From positions 1 to 64,000 of the IMG/VR virus record IMGVR_UViG_3300034111_000335: a stretch of DNA of 64,000 nucleotides; one strand, given 5' to 3'. The DNA is from a virus. The translations under genes and the position numbers were made by a program. This document shows, piece after piece, positions 1,672-36,844 of the stretch (position 1 is its first letter; each line of letters begins with the position of its first letter). The notes under the pieces were generated by a model. The model had not been told where the DNA came from. It did not search any database and worked only from the letters and a program-made list of their open reading frames with translations.

Positions 1672-2742
1672 TTAGATATAAGTTATTTTGTTCTGGTCAA
1701 AAGATTTTAAGTTGTCGTGCATCCACTTTTCGTCTACAGTATCTTTATAACACAATATGTGAATAGTAGAAGATTGATCAGGACTTAGTCTTAATAGACG
1801 ACCAAAGCGCTGAACGAACTTAGGGGAACCACCAGAATAAGAGTGTAGAATGATAGCATTTTTAAGATTAGGTATATTAATACCTTCGCTTAATTGCTCT
1901 ACACATGATAGTTTAGTGATTTCACCTGTTTTAAAGGCTTCTAAGGGACTATTCTTGTTCTTGGAATGGTGAGAGTCCTTACAGAGTCTTTCAGCTTGAT
2001 CTATGGTGTTTGCAAAGATTATAACTTTCTCCTCTGAGTCTATCTCTGAGATAAGTTTCTTAGCATAATTTTCCTTAGTTTCAAACTGCTTTAAGAAATT
2101 GATTCTTTGAATGGTCTTAAACATCAAATTTCTAGAGTTAGCGTTTTCTATCTCTCTAGTTATCCAGTCATACTGAGCTCTTTCACTGGTCATCCAACCT
2201 TGCTTAGTTTGAATAGTTTTGTTTTTGTTTAAGTCTAAATAGTGTACAAAGATGTGATAGTCGTTAAGAATCTCGTTTTCTACGGCTTTATCTGTCTTAA
2301 ATACGTACTTAATTGGGTAATACTCCATCATAAGTTGACCTTTCTCTGAAGTCAAATACTTAGGAGGAGTACCTGTTAAGCCTAAAATCCTCCCTCTGTA
2401 CTTTAATAAAAAAGGAAGAGTAGTAGCTTTAAGAGAGTGTGCTTCATCTAAGATAAGAATATCATACTCTTCAGGATTGTGTTTTGTAAGAGAAAGATAA
2501 GTAGTGAAGGTAATACGCTCTAAAAGCTCTTCAACCTCAAACTTGACTGCATCTGCTGTCCAAGACTTAAAAATATCTACCTTAGGAGCAACTACAAGAA
2601 CTTTCAAGTGATCAGGTAAGACATTGATATAATCTAATCCTATCTTAGTCTTACCTGCACCTGTCGCTAATTGTAAACCACACCTTTTAAACTGTAAGGC
2701 TTCTTTAAGAGCCTGATGTTGTATTAAATCTCTTGTTATCAT
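1672..2742 (-). CDS. superfamily 2 DEAH helicase (ResIII/UvsW-like)
   Basis: LATGAGKT Walker A, DEAH, TGTP, EGINIP, QRFGRLLR. Confidence 0.92.
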   Translation of the reverse strand: MITRDLIQHQALKEALQFKRCGLQLATGAGKTKIGLDYINVLPDHLKVLVVAPKVDIFKSWTADAVKFEVEELLERITFTTYLSLTKHNPEEYDILILDEAHSLKATTLPFLLKYRGRILGLTGTPPKYLTSEKGQLMMEYYPIKYVFKTDKAVENEILNDYHIFVHYLDLNKNKTIQTKQGWMTSERAQYDWITREIENANSRNLMFKTIQRINFLKQFETKENYAKKLISEIDSEEKVIIFANTIDQAERLCKDSHHSKNKNSPLEAFKTGEITKLSCVEQLSEGINIPNLKNAIILHSYSGGSPKFVQRFGRLLRLSPDQSSTIHILCYKDTVDEKWMHDNLKSFDQNKITYI

Positions 2743-2748
2743 ATATTA

Positions 2749-3249
2749 TCATTTGTAACTCTTTAGTTTGCTTACGTAAGTAGGATCTTCTGCATAGACA
2801 CCGTCTATGTTTTTAAGATACCTTTTTTGAATGTGAGCATAACACTTGATATTGTCTCTATAAGTGTCATACTTAGCATAGACTCCGTGTTTACCTGCTA
2901 CATGCTTACATTTATGAAAGGTAATACCAAACAAGTTCTTTGCTTGGATACCTACGTTAGACTTACCATGATTACTTTCTATTCTAGATTGTAAGCAAGC
3001 AACTGCAGCTAGGATTACTCCTTGCTTAGTAAGTTCTGCTGTAATTCCTGAATCATTAAGAATAACATCCTTCTCTGTGATAACTTCTTTTATCACTTTA
3101 GTCTTAGTTATTACCTCTGATTCTGGAAACATAAATGATACTAATAGCAATACTGCAAAGATAACATTAATAGTTAAAGAGATGTGAAAATACTTCTGAT
3201 AATTGGGAGCTTTTGATAAGCTAAGATCTTGATTTTGTTTGTAGTACAT
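2749..3249 (-). CDS. membrane-anchored GH73 glucosaminidase (peptidoglycan hydrolase)
   Basis: N-terminal TM helix; Q..IES..G, NLFGI and YAEDPTY motifs. Confidence 0.82.
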   Translation of the reverse strand: MYYKQNQDLSLSKAPNYQKYFHISLTINVIFAVLLLVSFMFPESEVITKTKVIKEVITEKDVILNDSGITAELTKQGVILAAVACLQSRIESNHGKSNVGIQAKNLFGITFHKCKHVAGKHGVYAKYDTYRDNIKCYAHIQKRYLKNIDGVYAEDPTYVSKLKSYK

Positions 3250-10469: not shown

Positions 10470-10499
10470 TTTGAAAAAAATTTTTTTAGTTTACCTTTG
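10470..10499 (+). promoter_or_regulatory. Bacteroidota-type promoter
   Basis: TTTG ... TACCTTTG ending 5 nt before the ATG at 10505. Confidence 0.6.
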
Positions 10500-10504
10500 A
10501 ACCC

Positions 10505-11089
10505 ATGCGAAAATTAAAAAATTTTATTTTTATCTTATCTTTCTTTCTTTCCCTACAAGGGTTCTCTCAGAGAGACTCTGTTTATGTTAAGACCTCTATC
10601 TATTCTTGTGTGTATTCAGAGGTTTTACAACAGCCTAAGCGAGTTTGGTACACTGTTCAATGTCCCTTAGGTTCTTATCCTAGAAAAGGAATGGACTTCT
10701 ACACTAACGATAGTGTAAGAACGAGTGACGGAAAAGATTACGAGGCTAATGTATGGGATAAGGGACATTGTGCTCCAGCAGCTGACTTTAACTGTGATAA
10801 AGATAGACTATGGGCTACCTTCTCTTACCTTAATTGCGTCTTACAGCACGAAAGGTTAAACAGAGGTGCTTGGAGATTCTTAGAAGTAAGAGAAAGAGAG
10901 TTAGCTAAGTCTCAAGTTGTCGAGGTAGAGATTAAAATGATTTACTCTAAGAGCAGTTTAAAATTGCCAACAGGAGCTACAGTCCCTGATGGATTCTTAA
11001 AAACTATTAAATACGGCAAGGTGAAGGAAGTTTATTATTTCAAGAACGAAGATCCAGGTACCACCGATTACTTAAGGTTTAGGAAGTAA
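10505..11089 (+). CDS. secreted DNA/RNA non-specific endonuclease (NucA/EndA family)
   Basis: Signal peptide; WDKGH, TFSYLN..LQ...LN..AW..LE motifs, ATVP. Confidence 0.9.
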   Translation: MRKLKNFIFILSFFLSLQGFSQRDSVYVKTSIYSCVYSEVLQQPKRVWYTVQCPLGSYPRKGMDFYTNDSVRTSDGKDYEANVWDKGHCAPAADFNCDKDRLWATFSYLNCVLQHERLNRGAWRFLEVRERELAKSQVVEVEIKMIYSKSSLKLPTGATVPDGFLKTIKYGKVKEVYYFKNEDPGTTDYLRFRK

Positions 11090-29033: not shown

Positions 29034-29092
29034 TTTGGCAGATTCTACAGAAAAGCATTATATTTGCATAAACCAACTAAACAATATAAATC

Positions 29093-29669: not shown

Positions 29670-29918
29670 ATGAAATTTTTAAACTTTATCGGAGGCCTCT
29701 TCAAAGATGAGAAGGGTGTTGTCTCTATGAAACGTCTGTGTGGCTTAGCATGCACAGTGACTTTATGCGCTACATTGTACGCTAACTCTTTTACCGAAGC
29801 ACACTTTGCTCCTTCTGTTCCTTTAGTGGATGCAGTTGCATTACTTGCATTTGGTTGTTTAGGTTTGACTTCTGTTGAGAAAATCATGAAGAAGCCAGAA
29901 GCACCTAGCGAAGATTAA
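29670..29918 (+). CDS. putative holin (two TM; start reassigned to MKFLNF)
   Basis: SMKRL motif with two hydrophobic helices; directly upstream of the endolysin. Confidence 0.65.
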   Translation: MKFLNFIGGLFKDEKGVVSMKRLCGLACTVTLCATLYANSFTEAHFAPSVPLVDAVALLAFGCLGLTSVEKIMKKPEAPSED

Positions 29919-29945: not shown

Positions 29946-30533
29946 ATGAGCTACACTAGAGAACAAATCGAAGCTGCTATGAAAGCCAAAGGCTACAAGT
30001 ACTTTGAGAACGGTGACTTTAACGTAAACATTATTGGAGTACGTAACTCTTCTACTGGTACTAAAGTAACCAACGTATTTGACGATCACTTGACTCTTTC
30101 TTACAAAGAAAACGGTGAGTGGAAATTTAAGATCTGGCCTGCTACTACTGATCCTGGAACTAAGGGTGTTAAAGAATTCCACAACGCTGCTGGAGTTGCT
30201 CGCTTAGTACCTGGTCAATACTCAGGTTCACACCATGTAGGATTACACCAAGGTAAGTACGAAGCTTTGAAACAGAAAGCAAACGTAAAGGTTTACCGTG
30301 ATGCTAACAAAGACATGAACTATGATGAATCTAAGATACAAGAAGGCATTTTCGGTATTAACATTCACAAGGCTGGTGCAGATTCTACTTACGTGGAGAA
30401 CTGGAGTGAGGGTTGCCAAGTGTTCAAGAAGTCTGCGGACTTTGATGCATTCATGGTTATCTGTAAGAAGGCTGCTGCATTAGGTGGTAACTCTTTTACC
30501 TACACTCTTATCGAGTCTAAAGATATTAAGTAA
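29946..30533 (+). CDS. putative endolysin with an L,D-transpeptidase-like His/Cys motif
   Basis: IIGVR, TTDPG, PGQY, GINIH...WSEGCQV (H...SxGC). Confidence 0.7.
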   Translation: MSYTREQIEAAMKAKGYKYFENGDFNVNIIGVRNSSTGTKVTNVFDDHLTLSYKENGEWKFKIWPATTDPGTKGVKEFHNAAGVARLVPGQYSGSHHVGLHQGKYEALKQKANVKVYRDANKDMNYDESKIQEGIFGINIHKAGADSTYVENWSEGCQVFKKSADFDAFMVICKKAAALGGNSFTYTLIESKDIK

Positions 30534-32894: not shown

Positions 32895-33245
32895 ATGAAC
32901 ATTAAAAAAACGCTTGGTTTTAGTCAAGCAGAACCAGTCCCAGTAGATCCTAAGAATAGATTCTATTACATGCTGCAGCAAATGCAGGCTAATCGTTGGA
33001 AGATTACAGCTATCGTATTAGGTTTGTTCTTCTTTATTATTCTTGGTATTAACTCTGCAGTATTTTTTGGAATAGAAATCCAAGAGAACTGGAAAGAGAT
33101 GTTACTTATTCTTTTTGGTGCCTTTGTAGGTAACTTAAACAAGGTAGTTGACTACTGGTTTAACTCAGAAGACCGTGACAAAATGTTAATTCAGAAGGTC
33201 GATGAAGAGGACGGTGAATCATTATCTAACCCAAATAACTCCTAA
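32895..33245 (+). CDS. two-TM membrane protein
   Basis: Two hydrophobic helices, VVDYWF. Confidence 0.75.
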   Translation: MNIKKTLGFSQAEPVPVDPKNRFYYMLQQMQANRWKITAIVLGLFFFIILGINSAVFFGIEIQENWKEMLLILFGAFVGNLNKVVDYWFNSEDRDKMLIQKVDEEDGESLSNPNNS

Positions 33246-33249
33246 TACT

Positions 33250-33570
33250 ATGTCAGAAGAACAAGAAGAAAGCGTAATGTCTGCTACTAAGAAAGCAATC
33301 ATTGGCGCAGTCACCACTGCTGTAACTGCAGGAGGTGCATGGTTTGCTACTCAATTCGGTGGCGGTGAAGAACCTAAAGAAGAGGCTAAAACAGAACAAG
33401 CTGCTCAGCCTGTAATTAACGTTAACCTAGAGAACAACAATACTAACCAACAGAAGCAATCTAGCGGAGGTACTAACACAATCATCAAAGAACGTGTAAT
33501 TGAAAAACCTGCTGCTCAACCTGCTGCTCCTGCAACCAAACCCCAAGCTGATGAAGAAGATCCTTGGTAA
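33250..33570 (+). CDS. small membrane-associated protein (start reassigned to MSEEQ)
   Basis: AIIGAVTTAVTAGGAWF helix followed by a low-complexity tail. Confidence 0.7.
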   Translation: MSEEQEESVMSATKKAIIGAVTTAVTAGGAWFATQFGGGEEPKEEAKTEQAAQPVINVNLENNNTNQQKQSSGGTNTIIKERVIEKPAAQPAAPATKPQADEEDPW

Positions 33571-34252
33571 GTCGCTTAACAGACTTTGGTTAGTCTTACT
33601 ATTAATGGGTTGTGGTTCTATGAAGACTACTACCGAGGAAGATAAAGTAGAGGTGAAAGACATCTCTACTGTATCTAACTATACAGATTCTATTAAAAAA
33701 ACAGTACAAGTAGTAAGCGTGGATATGACTAAAGTTTTAAGTTTGTATCCTGCTTTGCAAGAGAAGAATGTAGGTCTAGGATTTGCTGAGTCTGTACTTG
33801 ATTATTTGGATGAAACAAACAGATTTATATTCACAGAAGAGAAGTCAGAGATCAAAGAAAGAATGGTCACACAATTCAAAGCATCAAAGAAAGGCGTATT
33901 TGATGAGCCTGTTGATGGAAAAGGTAAGATTAAACCTGCTCACTACTTTGTTTACGTTACTGTGGCTGATTTTGCTGTTGATGAAGACGAGCAAGTTGAT
34001 GGCCTTAAGTCAAAGGTTGTGGTTACTACCTTCATCCGTTTACAGGTCCGCTTTGTGGATGCTAAAACAGGTCAGATCTATATTGGATCTGGTGAAGGTG
34101 AATCTACAAAGACAGGCGAATCTTTCTTAAAGTCTTTAGACGATATGAAGTTTTCTCAAAGCACAGTAGGTAAAGCTACCCGTAAATCTCTTGAAACTGC
34201 TTGTACTAATGTGATCCAAAATCTCATTAAGTCAGGTGTATTTAAAAACTAA
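33551..34252 (+). CDS. CsgG-like (curli transport family) lipoprotein
   Basis: Lipobox LLLMGC; RFIFTE...YFVYVTVADF...LQVRFVDAKTGQI..GSGEG pattern. Confidence 0.72.
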   Translation: MKKILGKSLNRLWLVLLLMGCGSMKTTTEEDKVEVKDISTVSNYTDSIKKTVQVVSVDMTKVLSLYPALQEKNVGLGFAESVLDYLDETNRFIFTEEKSEIKERMVTQFKASKKGVFDEPVDGKGKIKPAHYFVYVTVADFAVDEDEQVDGLKSKVVVTTFIRLQVRFVDAKTGQIYIGSGEGESTKTGESFLKSLDDMKFSQSTVGKATRKSLETACTNVIQNLIKSGVFKN

Positions 34253-35696
34253 GCTTTTTACTTTATTAGTGATTATAGCTCTGTCCGTAAATGGGCAGAG
34301 CTTTATCTATTCATACACAGATCCTTGCACACAGGAGCTAAAATTTATTAATGCTGACATGTCCAGTCCTATAGTAATTGCTTACTATGGACAGGTTAAA
34401 ACATTCTCTTATACAGAATTACAAGATGGAACGTTTGATAATTGGATAAATAGTGTATATTTGAAGTATCAAAATACATCACCCTGTCAAGGAGTTGGAG
34501 TAACTACTACTACAACTACCACAACAAATACGACTCTAAACATTGTAAGCAATGTAATGAACTTAGGGGCTATTTCAAATGTAGGTAGTGTAAATGTAGA
34601 CGTAGGATCTAGCACCTCTTCAGGAACTAACGTAGGAACAACCAATAAAACAAACAATAATGACAGCAGAACTAATTCTCGGAATCGTACTAGTAGCAGC
34701 TCTAGTAATTCTAATTCTTCTAGCAGCTCGTCAGGAGAAACTGGAAGCAGCAGCAATGGAGGAAATGCACCAGAAAATCAAAGCGGGAATACCGACAACG
34801 GAAATCCCGGAAGTAGTGGTAGCAGCGGAGAAGGTAATGGAGGAAGCAGTGGCTCCAGCTCCAGTGGAAACTCCAGTGGTAGTGGAAGCAGTAGTGGAAG
34901 CTCCAAAGGTGGAGGAAGTGGTGGCGGAGGTAAAACCGAAGAAAAAACGGAAGTACAAGAAGAAAAACCCTCCGACCAACAAGTAGAAGAAACTAAGACT
35001 GAGCAACAAAAGTCTCAGTCTAGTGGTACTGCGAAAGCAGCCAATAAAGCTAAAGCCGAAGTTGCTAAGCCCGCAATATTAGTAACTGGTGATTTAGTTG
35101 GTATTCAGACTAAGTCTGATGGAGCACAAGATGCAAGAGGTACTGCCTCCTTTACAAGAGTAAAAGGAGATGGTACTTCTTCTCTTGGGTTTTCAGCTGA
35201 TTACATGCTTAATGCTAGAATCGGTAATATCTCGTGCGTACGCTCGTGGATAGGAGCAAATAAAAAAGGCAACAAACACATTAGTGTTGTATCAGATGGT
35301 CTAAGTCTGATGCCTAAATCAATATCAAATACACTCTTGTTTGTAAGAGTAAACTCAGTTAAGAACTTTACAGCACTTTACGGAGCAGCTGGAACCTATG
35401 GTAAGTTATTTGGAGAAGAGATGATTTCTACAATTGCTATAGGTGGATTTATGTACAAGGGAAAACTTACTAAGAATATAGATGCTACAATTATTGCAGC
35501 AGGAATCTATTCTCCCTACTCTAAATATTATACAGAGTCTTTATTTGAAGCTAAGCCTATTGTAATTCCTTTCTTTAACTTTACCTACAAAATGACCAAG
35601 ACTTTTGGCTTAGGTATTACAGGAGGGGGAACTTACGTAGCAGGACAAGATATCCTAAACTTTCAAATCTTAATGGGAGCTAAGCTATTGATATGA
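34236..35696 (+). CDS. secreted protein with Ser/Gly-rich linker and putative C-terminal beta-barrel
   Basis: Signal peptide; T/S/G-rich middle; amphipathic beta-strand pattern in the last ~200 aa. Confidence 0.65.
   Translation: MYLKTKLFTLLVIIALSVNGQSFIYSYTDPCTQELKFINADMSSPIVIAYYGQVKTFSYTELQDGTFDNWINSVYLKYQNTSPCQGVGVTTTTTTTTNTTLNIVSNVMNLGAISNVGSVNVDVGSSTSSGTNVGTTNKTNNNDSRTNSRNRTSSSSSNSNSSSSSSGETGSSSNGGNAPENQSGNTDNGNPGSSGSSGEGNGGSSGSSSSGNSSGSGSSSGSSKGGGSGGGGKTEEKTEVQEEKPSDQQVEETKTEQQKSQSSGTAKAANKAKAEVAKPAILVTGDLVGIQTKSDGAQDARGTASFTRVKGDGTSSLGFSADYMLNARIGNISCVRSWIGANKKGNKHISVVSDGLSLMPKSISNTLLFVRVNSVKNFTALYGAAGTYGKLFGEEMISTIAIGGFMYKGKLTKNIDATIIAAGIYSPYSKYYTESLFEAKPIVIPFFNFTYKMTKTFGLGITGGGTYVAGQDILNFQILMGAKLLI
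34660..34986 (+). CDS. nested alternative-frame gene encoding a single-TM protein with a basic C-terminus
   Basis: A-rich leader aaaacaaacaata before ATG; TM helix, E/V/A/P-rich stalk, KPKKKRKYKKK tail. Confidence 0.6.
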   Translation: MTAELILGIVLVAALVILILLAARQEKLEAAAMEEMHQKIKAGIPTTEIPEVVVAAEKVMEEAVAPAPVETPVVVEAVVEAPKVEEVVAEVKPKKKRKYKKKNPPTNK

Positions 35697-36844
35697 GGTG
35701 GATCATTGTTTTACTCTTCTTTGTGAACTCACTGAGTGCACAATTCACTTACTCAGGATATATGTACAGTGCTAATGGAGGTGCTGCTATAAACGTTCCT
35801 GTGAAGCTTTATAAAAGAACAACAACTACTACAGGAAATAACTCTACTACAGTAAAGGTTTATAGAACTCATAATGGAACTGGTGCTACCACACAGTACT
35901 CTACTTATCCTTCTACGAGATCAGAAATGGATAGGTGTTTTAACACAAGTTACTCCCACACTAGTTTGTGGTCAACAACTACAATGTCAGGTAACTCTTC
36001 TTTAAATTTTGGAACTTATAGTACATTAACTTCTGCAGGTGCTAGTGTTCCTAGTAGTGGGGATTACTATGCTACAGAAGTAAGTTTTACTTTTACCCCT
36101 GCAGAAACTGGCACCTATTCTTTTGGTATGACTTCTGATGATGGATCAGATCTGTGGTTAGTAAATACAGGAAGTATTATTGAATACTATGGAGGTAAAG
36201 GAGTAGGTACTTACAAATACGGTAGTGTGAGTTTAACCGCAGGTACTTCTTATACGTTTATTGCACGCATGCAAGAATACTCTGGCGGAGATGGATTATA
36301 TCTTATCTGGAGAAGACCTTCTCAATCTGCACATTCTTATCAATCCTCTGAAGTAGGGACAGTAACTACTACAACTTCTTCTTGGACTTTAGATGCTACA
36401 GCCTATACTAACTCTTCAGGATACTATGCTTTCTCTAGAACCACTACTGCAAGTACACAATGGTATATACAAGTAGATGTACCTACAAGAATTCAGGCTT
36501 ACACTAGCACAGATATTCAAACAGTATCTAATATTATCTTAGGTAAGTCTACAGTCAATGGATTATCTTATCACAGATTTGATGTTAATGATGACGGAAG
36601 ATTAAACATTGCAGACAAATACTATGTAGCTGCTAGGAAGTCAGGAAGATTTACTAGATGGAGGTTAGCCTCTGATGTAAGAATATTTACAGCTGCTCAG
36701 TACAATACAATCTCTTCTTCTACTGGTAATGTGCGTACTACATATCCAGGAGTAGCTACCTTCTCAACTTCTACTTTAACTAGTGGAGGAACTTTAAATC
36801 TATATCTAATAGCTCCTGGATACTCTGGAGCAGTAACTTACTAA
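35693..36844 (+). CDS. secreted PA14-domain protein with a dockerin-like motif
   Basis: Signal peptide; GTYSFGMTSDDGSDLW (PA14); FDVNDDGRLNIAD. Confidence 0.78.
   Translation: MRWIIVLLFFVNSLSAQFTYSGYMYSANGGAAINVPVKLYKRTTTTTGNNSTTVKVYRTHNGTGATTQYSTYPSTRSEMDRCFNTSYSHTSLWSTTTMSGNSSLNFGTYSTLTSAGASVPSSGDYYATEVSFTFTPAETGTYSFGMTSDDGSDLWLVNTGSIIEYYGGKGVGTYKYGSVSLTAGTSYTFIARMQEYSGGDGLYLIWRRPSQSAHSYQSSEVGTVTTTTSSWTLDATAYTNSSGYYAFSRTTTASTQWYIQVDVPTRIQAYTSTDIQTVSNIILGKSTVNGLSYHRFDVNDDGRLNIADKYYVAARKSGRFTRWRLASDVRIFTAAQYNTISSSTGNVRTTYPGVATFSTSTLTSGGTLNLYLIAPGYSGAVTY

Follow-up and report, generated by a model that had tools for sequence, protein, structure and literature searches.

A probable membrane-protein gene overprinted on the linker of a predicted phage outer-membrane protein, and its stand-alone relatives

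Among described systems, the closest to the locus considered here are gene E of phage phiX174, nested in gene D, the Rz/Rz1 spanin pair of phage lambda, and overprinted viral genes at large. The E protein is described as having an N-terminal transmembrane (TM) domain preceded by a short periplasmic N-terminus, i.e., as N-out (PMC4825663). For Rz/Rz1, the overlap is said to be tolerated by an unstructured region of one of the proteins, and inner-membrane spanins (i-spanins) are described as N-in/C-out; in the spanin survey, no family with embedded as well as separated members is reported (PMC6139136). Overprinted viral genes are, according to two reviews, characterized by a narrow taxonomic range, atypical codon usage, and overlap with regions of protein disorder (PMC8227390, PMC6188560). 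Here, we analyze a window of 64,000 nucleotides, the first 64 kb of the 118,886-bp viral record IMGVR_UViG_3300034111_000335 with direct terminal repeats, in which an open reading frame (ORF), named X, lies entirely within the gene for a predicted outer-membrane protein (hereafter, the outer gene and the outer protein).

Comparison of related loci indicates that X (34660..34986, plus strand) is very likely a genuine gene that has its own translation start and overprints the linker of the outer protein in the +1 frame. This assignment is based on the existence of stand-alone homologues of X, on the coincidence of the limits of homology with those of X, and on the suppression of third-position changes in the segments shared by nested and stand-alone copies. 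A preliminary description of this DNA, made by a model from the letters and ORF translations, had proposed true dual coding. The proposal gains its support from the stand-alone homologues, the homology limits, and the constraint on the core segments, and not from ORF length, TM helix, and stalk, which taken alone are largely automatic by-products of the linker and no proof of coding.

X starts with ATG and encodes 108 amino acids (aa) followed by a stop codon; it is offset by 424 nt within the 486-codon outer gene (34236..35696, plus strand) and is thus fully nested, as the preliminary description had it. The parts listed there are all found as well: an A-rich start, an N-terminal TM helix, a stalk rich in E, V, A, and P, and a basic tail. 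The product reads, in order, M-T-A-E, a hydrophobic stretch of 19 residues, RQEK, a segment containing MEEMHQKIKAG, the E/V/A/P-rich middle, and KPKKKRKYKKKNPPTNK. Residues A55, A56, V59, E62, and A63, as well as VKPKKKRKYK of the tail, are invariant in all 19 aligned X proteins, stand-alone copies included. The AlphaFold2 model of X, built from 19 sequences, has helices at residues 3–41 (predicted local distance difference test, pLDDT, 82–93 over the TM part) and 51–62, the rest being disordered. Of 29 proteins of the X family, 28 have no lysine or arginine ahead of the TM helix, compared with 2–7 such residues among the 15 that follow it. By the positive-inside rule, the topology of a TM helix is read from its flanking charges, and since these residues lie only C-terminal of the helix, the charge pattern favours N-out/C-in for X. 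The protein is accordingly predicted to be a single-pass membrane protein with a very short, uncharged-to-acidic N-terminus. A Protein Atlas search returned unnamed viral clusters only (scores 0.81–0.88), and the X profile matched six clusters among 1.84 billion representatives.

Stand-alone loci were sought by searching viral contigs with X. In two contigs (L080 and L081), the ORF 2432..2743 encodes a 103-aa protein with the TM helix (containing LGIVL), AAEKVMKEA, and VKPKKKRKYKPRNP. A 95-aa gene at 2930..3217 of a third locus (L082), reached via the called homologue P0024 on an 81.5-kb contig, shares with nested X the TM helix, AAEKVM.EA, and VKPKKKRKYKPRNP; the EMHQKIKAGI motif is present in the L080 copy and absent from that of L082. 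On the plus strand, no second ORF of 35 aa or more extends over 2432..2743, and the L082 gene is likewise unaccompanied. The equivalent of the outer frame around the middle of stand-alone X is open for just 11 (L080/L081) and 4 (L082) codons, compared with 414–503 codons in 14 nested loci from the same searches. In their X frame, the stand-alone genes have ordinary codon usage (mean log relative synonymous codon usage, RSCU, 0.222 and 0.148, within the gene range of 0.267 ± 0.084), and their other two frames are off-frame-like. Compared as DNA, stand-alone and nested copies resemble each other from about 15 nt ahead of the ATG up to the X stop codon and no further; for L082 the similarity amounts to 70% over 239 nt and then 92% over the last 61 nt (vs. 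the nested locus L058). The stand-alone proteins have no acidic stalk, and their net C-terminal charge is +6 to +11, compared with −2 to +5 in nested long forms.

The endolysin-like protein of L080 is 97% identical to that of the window and the 82-aa membrane protein encoded upstream of it is 90% identical, and hence L080 represents a true sister phage. The outer profile had no match at E ≤ 0.01 in the L080 and L081 records (97 and 50 kb; 81% and 37% complete). Among cultured phages, no match to stand-alone X was found. Three further proteins (P0022, P0023, and P0025) were counted as stand-alone solely by their likeness to L082, which weighs against the interpretation. The representative search added two more family members (P0026 and P0027), located on contigs of 6.6 and 2.1 kb and not found in the viral contig set.

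Nested copies are far more numerous. A search for related loci produced 63 of them; together with the window locus and Flavobacterium phage immuto, 52 carry a full-length outer gene, which is uninterrupted in a single frame in all 52 loci kept for analysis. A long form of X (98–118 aa) is present in 21 of these (outer identity at least 76%), and the ATG, the TM helix, and the tail are kept in all 21. Ten loci with outer identity of 55–66% have a short form (47–65 aa), consisting of the TM helix, a charged segment, and (M/L/I)(E/V)E(I/T)HQKIK(A/V)G, with the stop 4–12 codons further on. The remaining 21 loci have other +1 ORFs that could not be confidently aligned to X, or none, as in immuto. 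A later scan yielded 35 further short-form loci, all nested and all retaining the ATG, the TM helix, and EEIHQKIKAG, which brings the short-form loci examined to 45, every one of them nested. A metagenome scan contributed at least two loci, with X nested in both, and over 90 nested X loci were seen in all. In short-form loci (e.g., L057, L048, and L040; about residues 194–240 of the outer protein), the +1 frame reopens after the stop of short X and contains a second hydrophobic run, a basic end, and sometimes an ATG of its own; this stretch may be a by-product or raw material of the long form.

Constraint in the overlap was measured in core segments, i.e., the TM helix with RQEK, AAEKVMEEAVAPAP, and the tail, which were fixed beforehand by their conservation in the stand-alone copies. 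Over 17 close nested loci, the 52 outer-frame third positions of these segments have 14 changes vs. 70.4 expected from the flank rate of 1.354 (P = 3e-16). The deficit is found in the TM segment (9 changes at 27 third positions vs. 36.5 expected), in the second helix (2 vs. 14.9), and in the tail (3 vs. 18.9). The rest of X has 65 third-position changes vs. 48.7 expected and the periodicity of the outer frame (32/65/41), and residues 29–45 of X are unconstrained in the 17 closest sequences (20 changes vs. 20.3 expected). Thus, the reduction of synonymous variation that dual coding would predict, and that the preliminary description had suggested looking for, holds for the core and not for the rest of X. 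The synonymous rate (dS) of the outer gene is 0.26 over the TM helix window, compared with 1.2–2.6 in most other windows. In a window scan, the outer third position was frozen and the first variable over ..LVILILLAARQE (0.75/0.33/0.08 changes per site), although the windows with such reversed periodicity were chosen after the data had been seen. In the 11-codon motif, compared among 18 distinct sequences, the number of variable columns out of 11 is 1, 3, and 5 for the first, second, and third positions of the X codons, respectively, and outer-frame changes between PP and SS are silent in X. Pairwise ratios of non-synonymous to synonymous rates (dN/dS, Nei–Gojobori method, NG86) for X vs. the outer frame are 0.48 vs. 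0.70 in the stalk and 0.30 vs. 0.67 in the tail.

A rival explanation is that the +1 frame is open, hydrophobic, and rich in E, V, A, and P merely because of T- or C-ending Ser, Asn, Thr, and Gly codons of the outer frame, the nested copy being untranslated or functionless, and a number of observations weigh against coding by X in this way. A +1 stop requires an outer-frame NTA or NTG codon before A or G, and such codons encode Leu, Ile, Val, or Met; as these residues are missing from the linker, it cannot hold +1 stops, which accounts for the long open frame. The nearest stop-forming Val codons (GTA|G) on either side set the exact limits of X, and in the +1 frame, T-ending Ser, Asn, and Thr codons yield Val, Ile, and Leu. 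When the outer protein was fixed and its codons were redrawn from the usage of 16 other window genes (1000 shuffles), 71% of shuffles contained an ATG-initiated ORF of 108 aa or more (P = 0.71), i.e., the length is not above expectation; the corresponding P is 0.20–0.92 in 16 other representatives. The hydrophobic N-terminus is partly expected too, with a mean best value of 2.29 in shuffles vs. 3.37 observed (P = 0.016; 0.01–0.23 in 15 other representatives and 0.71 in immuto). Codon usage in the overlap cannot choose between the frames, both being atypical (mean log RSCU: outer frame −0.133, X −0.225), and that of nested X resembles the +1 off-frames of real genes (−0.213). The outer frame has 15 AGC, 11 AGT, and 15 GGA codons here, AGC constituting 5% of Ser codons in the 16 other genes, so an early remark linking the +1 codons to AGT, AGC, and GGA runs holds. 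The pairwise NG86 ratios do not discriminate in the block of the TM helix and the motif (0.81 for X vs. 0.92), and the six-frame version singles out no frame, the lowest value (0.58, antisense in-register) being a known register artefact. In 19 long-form sequences, the tree-based count of changes non-synonymous in both frames relative to changes synonymous in X is 0.95 (0.71–1.29) over the whole overlap and below 1 in the stalk only (0.59; 0.39–0.89). The changes in the core segments follow no periodicity of the X reading frame (16/14/22, p = 0.40). Linkers of related loci contain further hydrophobic +1 stretches, and X has no match in Pfam, PHROGs, or NCBIfam, so that homology gives no function. 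The same tract is also open on the minus strand (34487..34756, 34731..35009, and 34778..34906; 89, 92, and 42 aa), and these three ORFs were treated as compositional by-products. A functionless ORF is nevertheless improbable, as it does not account for the existence of stand-alone homologues in which codon usage is normal and the outer frame is closed, for homology limits coinciding with the ORF, or for the five-fold deficit of outer third-position changes precisely in the segments common to the stand-alone copies. One could also ascribe the frozen segments to a nucleic-acid element such as an RNA structure, a regulatory site, or a recombination tract. A patch outside the overlap is frozen as well, so frozen sites need not mean coding, and the core has no clear X-frame periodicity. 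However, the stand-alone copies, with DNA no more than about 70% identical, have retained the protein sequence of these segments, which makes such an element extremely improbable as their cause.

If X is a gene, its history and its partner remain to be weighed. In an unrooted tree of 27 rows, short and long forms are split with support of 100/100, and both stand-alone lineages fall inside the nested long forms (99/97), L082 being sister to the L058/L092 type (86/84). Neither the grouping of all stand-alone copies in one clade nor that of all nested long forms in one clade is accepted by approximately unbiased (AU) tests (p = 0.002 for each), with the reservation that the tested groups were named after the tree had been seen. 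The X tail is the +1 reading of an outer K/T/E motif (KTEE.KTE..P..Q.VEE.KTE.QK) that also occurs in outer clades without long X; this suggests that the motif is older than the tail overprinted on it, and that the free copies would thus descend from nested ones. We give about even chances to a history in which X was born de novo in the linker, lengthened by stop loss, and was freed at least twice in sister phages. In this scenario, a short TM ORF would have arisen in the disordered linker of the outer gene, would have lengthened on loss of its stop (an outer-frame Val codon), so as to read the older K/T/E motif as a tail, and would have been copied out at least twice to become an autonomous gene. 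The E/V/A/P stalk is probably mostly a by-product of outer Ser/Gly codons, imposed by the outer frame, since the stand-alone copies have none. The reverse direction, with X as an older free gene that was captured into the linker or over which the linker grew, seems rather unlikely to us. The unrooted tree needs two state changes either way, the L080 copy sits on a long branch (0.83), and the spanin survey argues that separated genes can give rise to embedded arrangements (PMC6139136); against this direction stand the nesting of all 45 short-form loci, the derivation of the tail from a motif present in clades without long X, the stops filling the outer-frame equivalent of the stand-alone genes, and the mere six X clusters among all representatives. 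A different role for the nested pair was implied by the analogy with embedded spanins drawn in the preliminary description: X and the outer protein would assemble into a complex across the periplasm and disrupt the outer membrane during lysis, as an inverted version of an embedded spanin pair. The N-terminal TM helix of X, the barrel-like C-terminal domain of the outer protein, the endolysin-like gene 4.1 kb upstream, and an architecture recalling Rz/Rz1 (PMC6139136) are consistent with it. However, a lipobox is missing from both proteins (no Cys follows the TM helix of X, and the outer N-terminus reads ..IIALSVNGQS..), and X, with its N-terminal TM helix, predicted helices only at 3–41 and 51–62, and Lys/Arg only C-terminal, probably has the topology opposite to the N-in/C-out one given for i-spanins in that source. 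The partners are not always together either: the L080/L081 records have X without an outer homologue, and immuto has the outer gene without X. The analogy is thus not supported, and a spanin pair is very unlikely.

As to function, X might be an inner-membrane accessory of lysis or envelope remodelling, acting via its TM helix and a cytoplasmic basic tail in a way similar to a holin, an antiholin, or phiX174 E; we offer this only tentatively. The assignment is favoured by the position of the stand-alone copies, which lie three (L080) and five (L082) genes after the endolysin-like gene, in a module that opens with a putative holin and the endolysin-like gene. A small protein with a TM helix and a coiled-coil-like part is encoded just before stand-alone X in L082 and near it in L080. 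Traits of holins and antiholins present in X are its small size, one TM helix, and a charged C-terminus. The 82-aa protein encoded directly upstream of the endolysin-like gene is a putative holin, and a stronger candidate than X.

Translation of X would start at its ATG in an A-rich context without a Shine-Dalgarno (SD) sequence, either from the operon mRNA or from a transcript of the candidate promoter listed in the table. The A fraction of the leader is 0.64 over positions −25 to −1, and A occupies position −3 in 20 of 21 X starts examined, with A fractions of 0.40–0.68. Bacteroidetes are described as having no SD sequences and as favouring initiation with A at −3 (PMC6847099). The X start context fits this mode of initiation. 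A +1 frameshift from the outer frame into X was considered and rejected, as the stand-alone copies share the same Met and leader. The promoter candidate, TTTG-N18-TATATTTG, follows a consensus that we take to be of the Bacteroidetes type; it may drive X or downstream genes. The pattern has four matches in the window vs. 2.2 expected and is not significant alone. At this position it is present in all 21 long-form loci, which form one clade, and in none of 31 other full-length loci, and it lies within 36 nt that are nearly invariant at all three codon positions. Elsewhere in the window, the pattern occurs on the plus strand at 29034..29066, in the intergenic region upstream of the block leading into the lysis and envelope genes, and at 10470..10499, just upstream of the ORF 10505..11089. 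Metatranscriptome contigs from two freshwater runs of two studies (X1 and X2) and from one marine run (X4) cover parts of 33500..36000, the overlap included; having no strand, start, or level, and with DNA carry-over possible, they were not counted as expression and lend X no weight, and gaps in their coverage carry no meaning either.

The outer protein is modelled as a secreted protein composed of an N-domain, a linker, and an outer-membrane beta-barrel. Its AlphaFold2 model, built from 25 homologues, is poor overall (mean pLDDT 46.6), with a signal-peptide helix at residues 2–17, an N-domain of pLDDT 65–83, residues 85–298 below 50 (the linker below 30), and 12 strands at 280–484 (50–70). 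Foldseek against PDB returned NanC (TMt 0.61), KdgM (0.68), PcoB (0.59), the TamA barrel, and FapF, with E values of 3e-4 to 1e-2. Searches of Pfam, PHROGs, and NCBIfam gave no family, and the outer profile had only a chance match to PDB sequences (E = 0.64). Against cultured phages, blastn found no DNA match, and tblastn with the outer protein found only four immuto records at 32% identity. In immuto, a syntenic trio includes gp018 (474 aa, 32% identity), the homologue of the outer protein, whose linker has no +1 ORF comparable to X.

The features of the locus and of its neighbourhood are collected in Table 1. Between the endolysin-like gene and the outer gene, two small membrane-protein ORFs with putative start codons (32895..33245 and 33202..33570, both on the plus strand) overlap each other by 44 nt, and the second also overlaps the lipoprotein gene by 20 nt at the likely start of the latter (33551). 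In two related phages, ORFs that by eye resemble GIY-YIG homing endonucleases (with a ..Y.GIG.. start) are inserted in different places of the same envelope module, at 3085..3726 of L039 (213 aa) and 622..1209 of L141 (195 aa). In L039, the insert separates the lipoprotein gene from the outer gene, and the outer protein of this locus has a different signal peptide.

Table 1. Positions of X segments, the outer gene, and neighbouring features in the window
Feature	Position	Strand	Remarks
A-rich leader of X	34635..34659	+	K/N patch in the outer frame; A at −3 and −6
Predicted TM helix of X (aa 5–23)	34672..34728	+	Kyte-Doolittle 3.37 (19-residue window); followed by R24-Q-E-K
Juxtamembrane motif MEEMHQKIKAG (X aa 33–43)	34756..34788	+	kept in L080 (stand-alone) and in loci with outer identity as low as 55%
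Second helix AAEKVMEEAVAPAP (X aa 55–68)	34822..34863	+	AlphaFold2 helix 51–62; invariant residues
Basic tail VKPKKKRKYKKKNPPTNK (X aa 91–108)	34930..34983	+	outer frame reads KTEEKTEVQEEKPSDQQ from the same bases
Outer gene, 486 aa	34236..35696	+	signal peptide aa 1–21, small N-domain aa 22–84, linker, C-terminal barrel
Linker of the outer protein, S/G/N/T, disordered	about aa 85–278	+	spanned by X
C-terminal ~12-stranded beta-barrel of the outer protein	aa 279–486	+	AlphaFold2 and Foldseek
Candidate internal promoter TTTG-N18-TATATTTG	34434..34463	+	about 197 nt upstream of the X ATG, in the outer N-domain
82-aa protein	29670..29918	+	hydrophobic in two places, with a charged end; immediately precedes the endolysin-like gene
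Endolysin-like gene	29946..30533	+	phrog_3000, 3e-38; phrog_33083 'endolysin', 2e-12; 4.1 kb upstream of X
Lipoprotein gene	about 33551..34252	+	neighbour of the outer gene
Cohesin + T9SS-CTD protein; PA14 protein			neighbours of the outer gene

Nested genes are not reported by gene callers, and proteins of this kind are therefore invisible in phage annotation; the case of X was supported without expression data. The X family constitutes a natural experiment on the constraints that a protein experiences from an overlap and on the path by which overprinted genes can turn independent. If X was indeed born nested and then freed, its functional parts would be the TM helix, the two helices, and the basic tail, and the parts imposed by its partner would be the acidic E/V/A/P stalk and the odd codon usage. 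Caution is also called for: Ser/Asn/Gly linkers in AT-rich genomes automatically yield an ORF, a TM helix, and a stalk, and other shadow proteins need the same controls.

Compared with the systems described at the outset, X resembles phiX174 E in being a small (108 vs. 91 aa) predicted single-pass membrane protein whose gene is nested in a shifted frame, and its charge pattern suggests the same N-out topology. Unlike the host gene of E, that of X encodes a predicted exported outer-membrane protein, and the overlap falls in a disordered linker; the X phage is a 119-kb double-stranded DNA phage with its own endolysin-like gene, and no sequence family joins X to E; any lysis role of X is putative. 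With lambda Rz/Rz1, the locus shares a +1 gene wholly embedded in a phage envelope-protein gene near lysis genes. There, however, the embedded gene encodes an outer-membrane lipoprotein and its host gene an inner-membrane protein, whereas no lipoprotein is involved here and X is also found without its host gene. In contrast to the families of the spanin survey as cited above, the X family has nested plus stand-alone members. Finally, X is like other overprinted viral genes in its narrow distribution (six clusters), atypical codon usage, and disordered host region, and it differs from them in that X itself, and not the host region, carries the predicted ordered elements, and in that nested and freed copies exist side by side.

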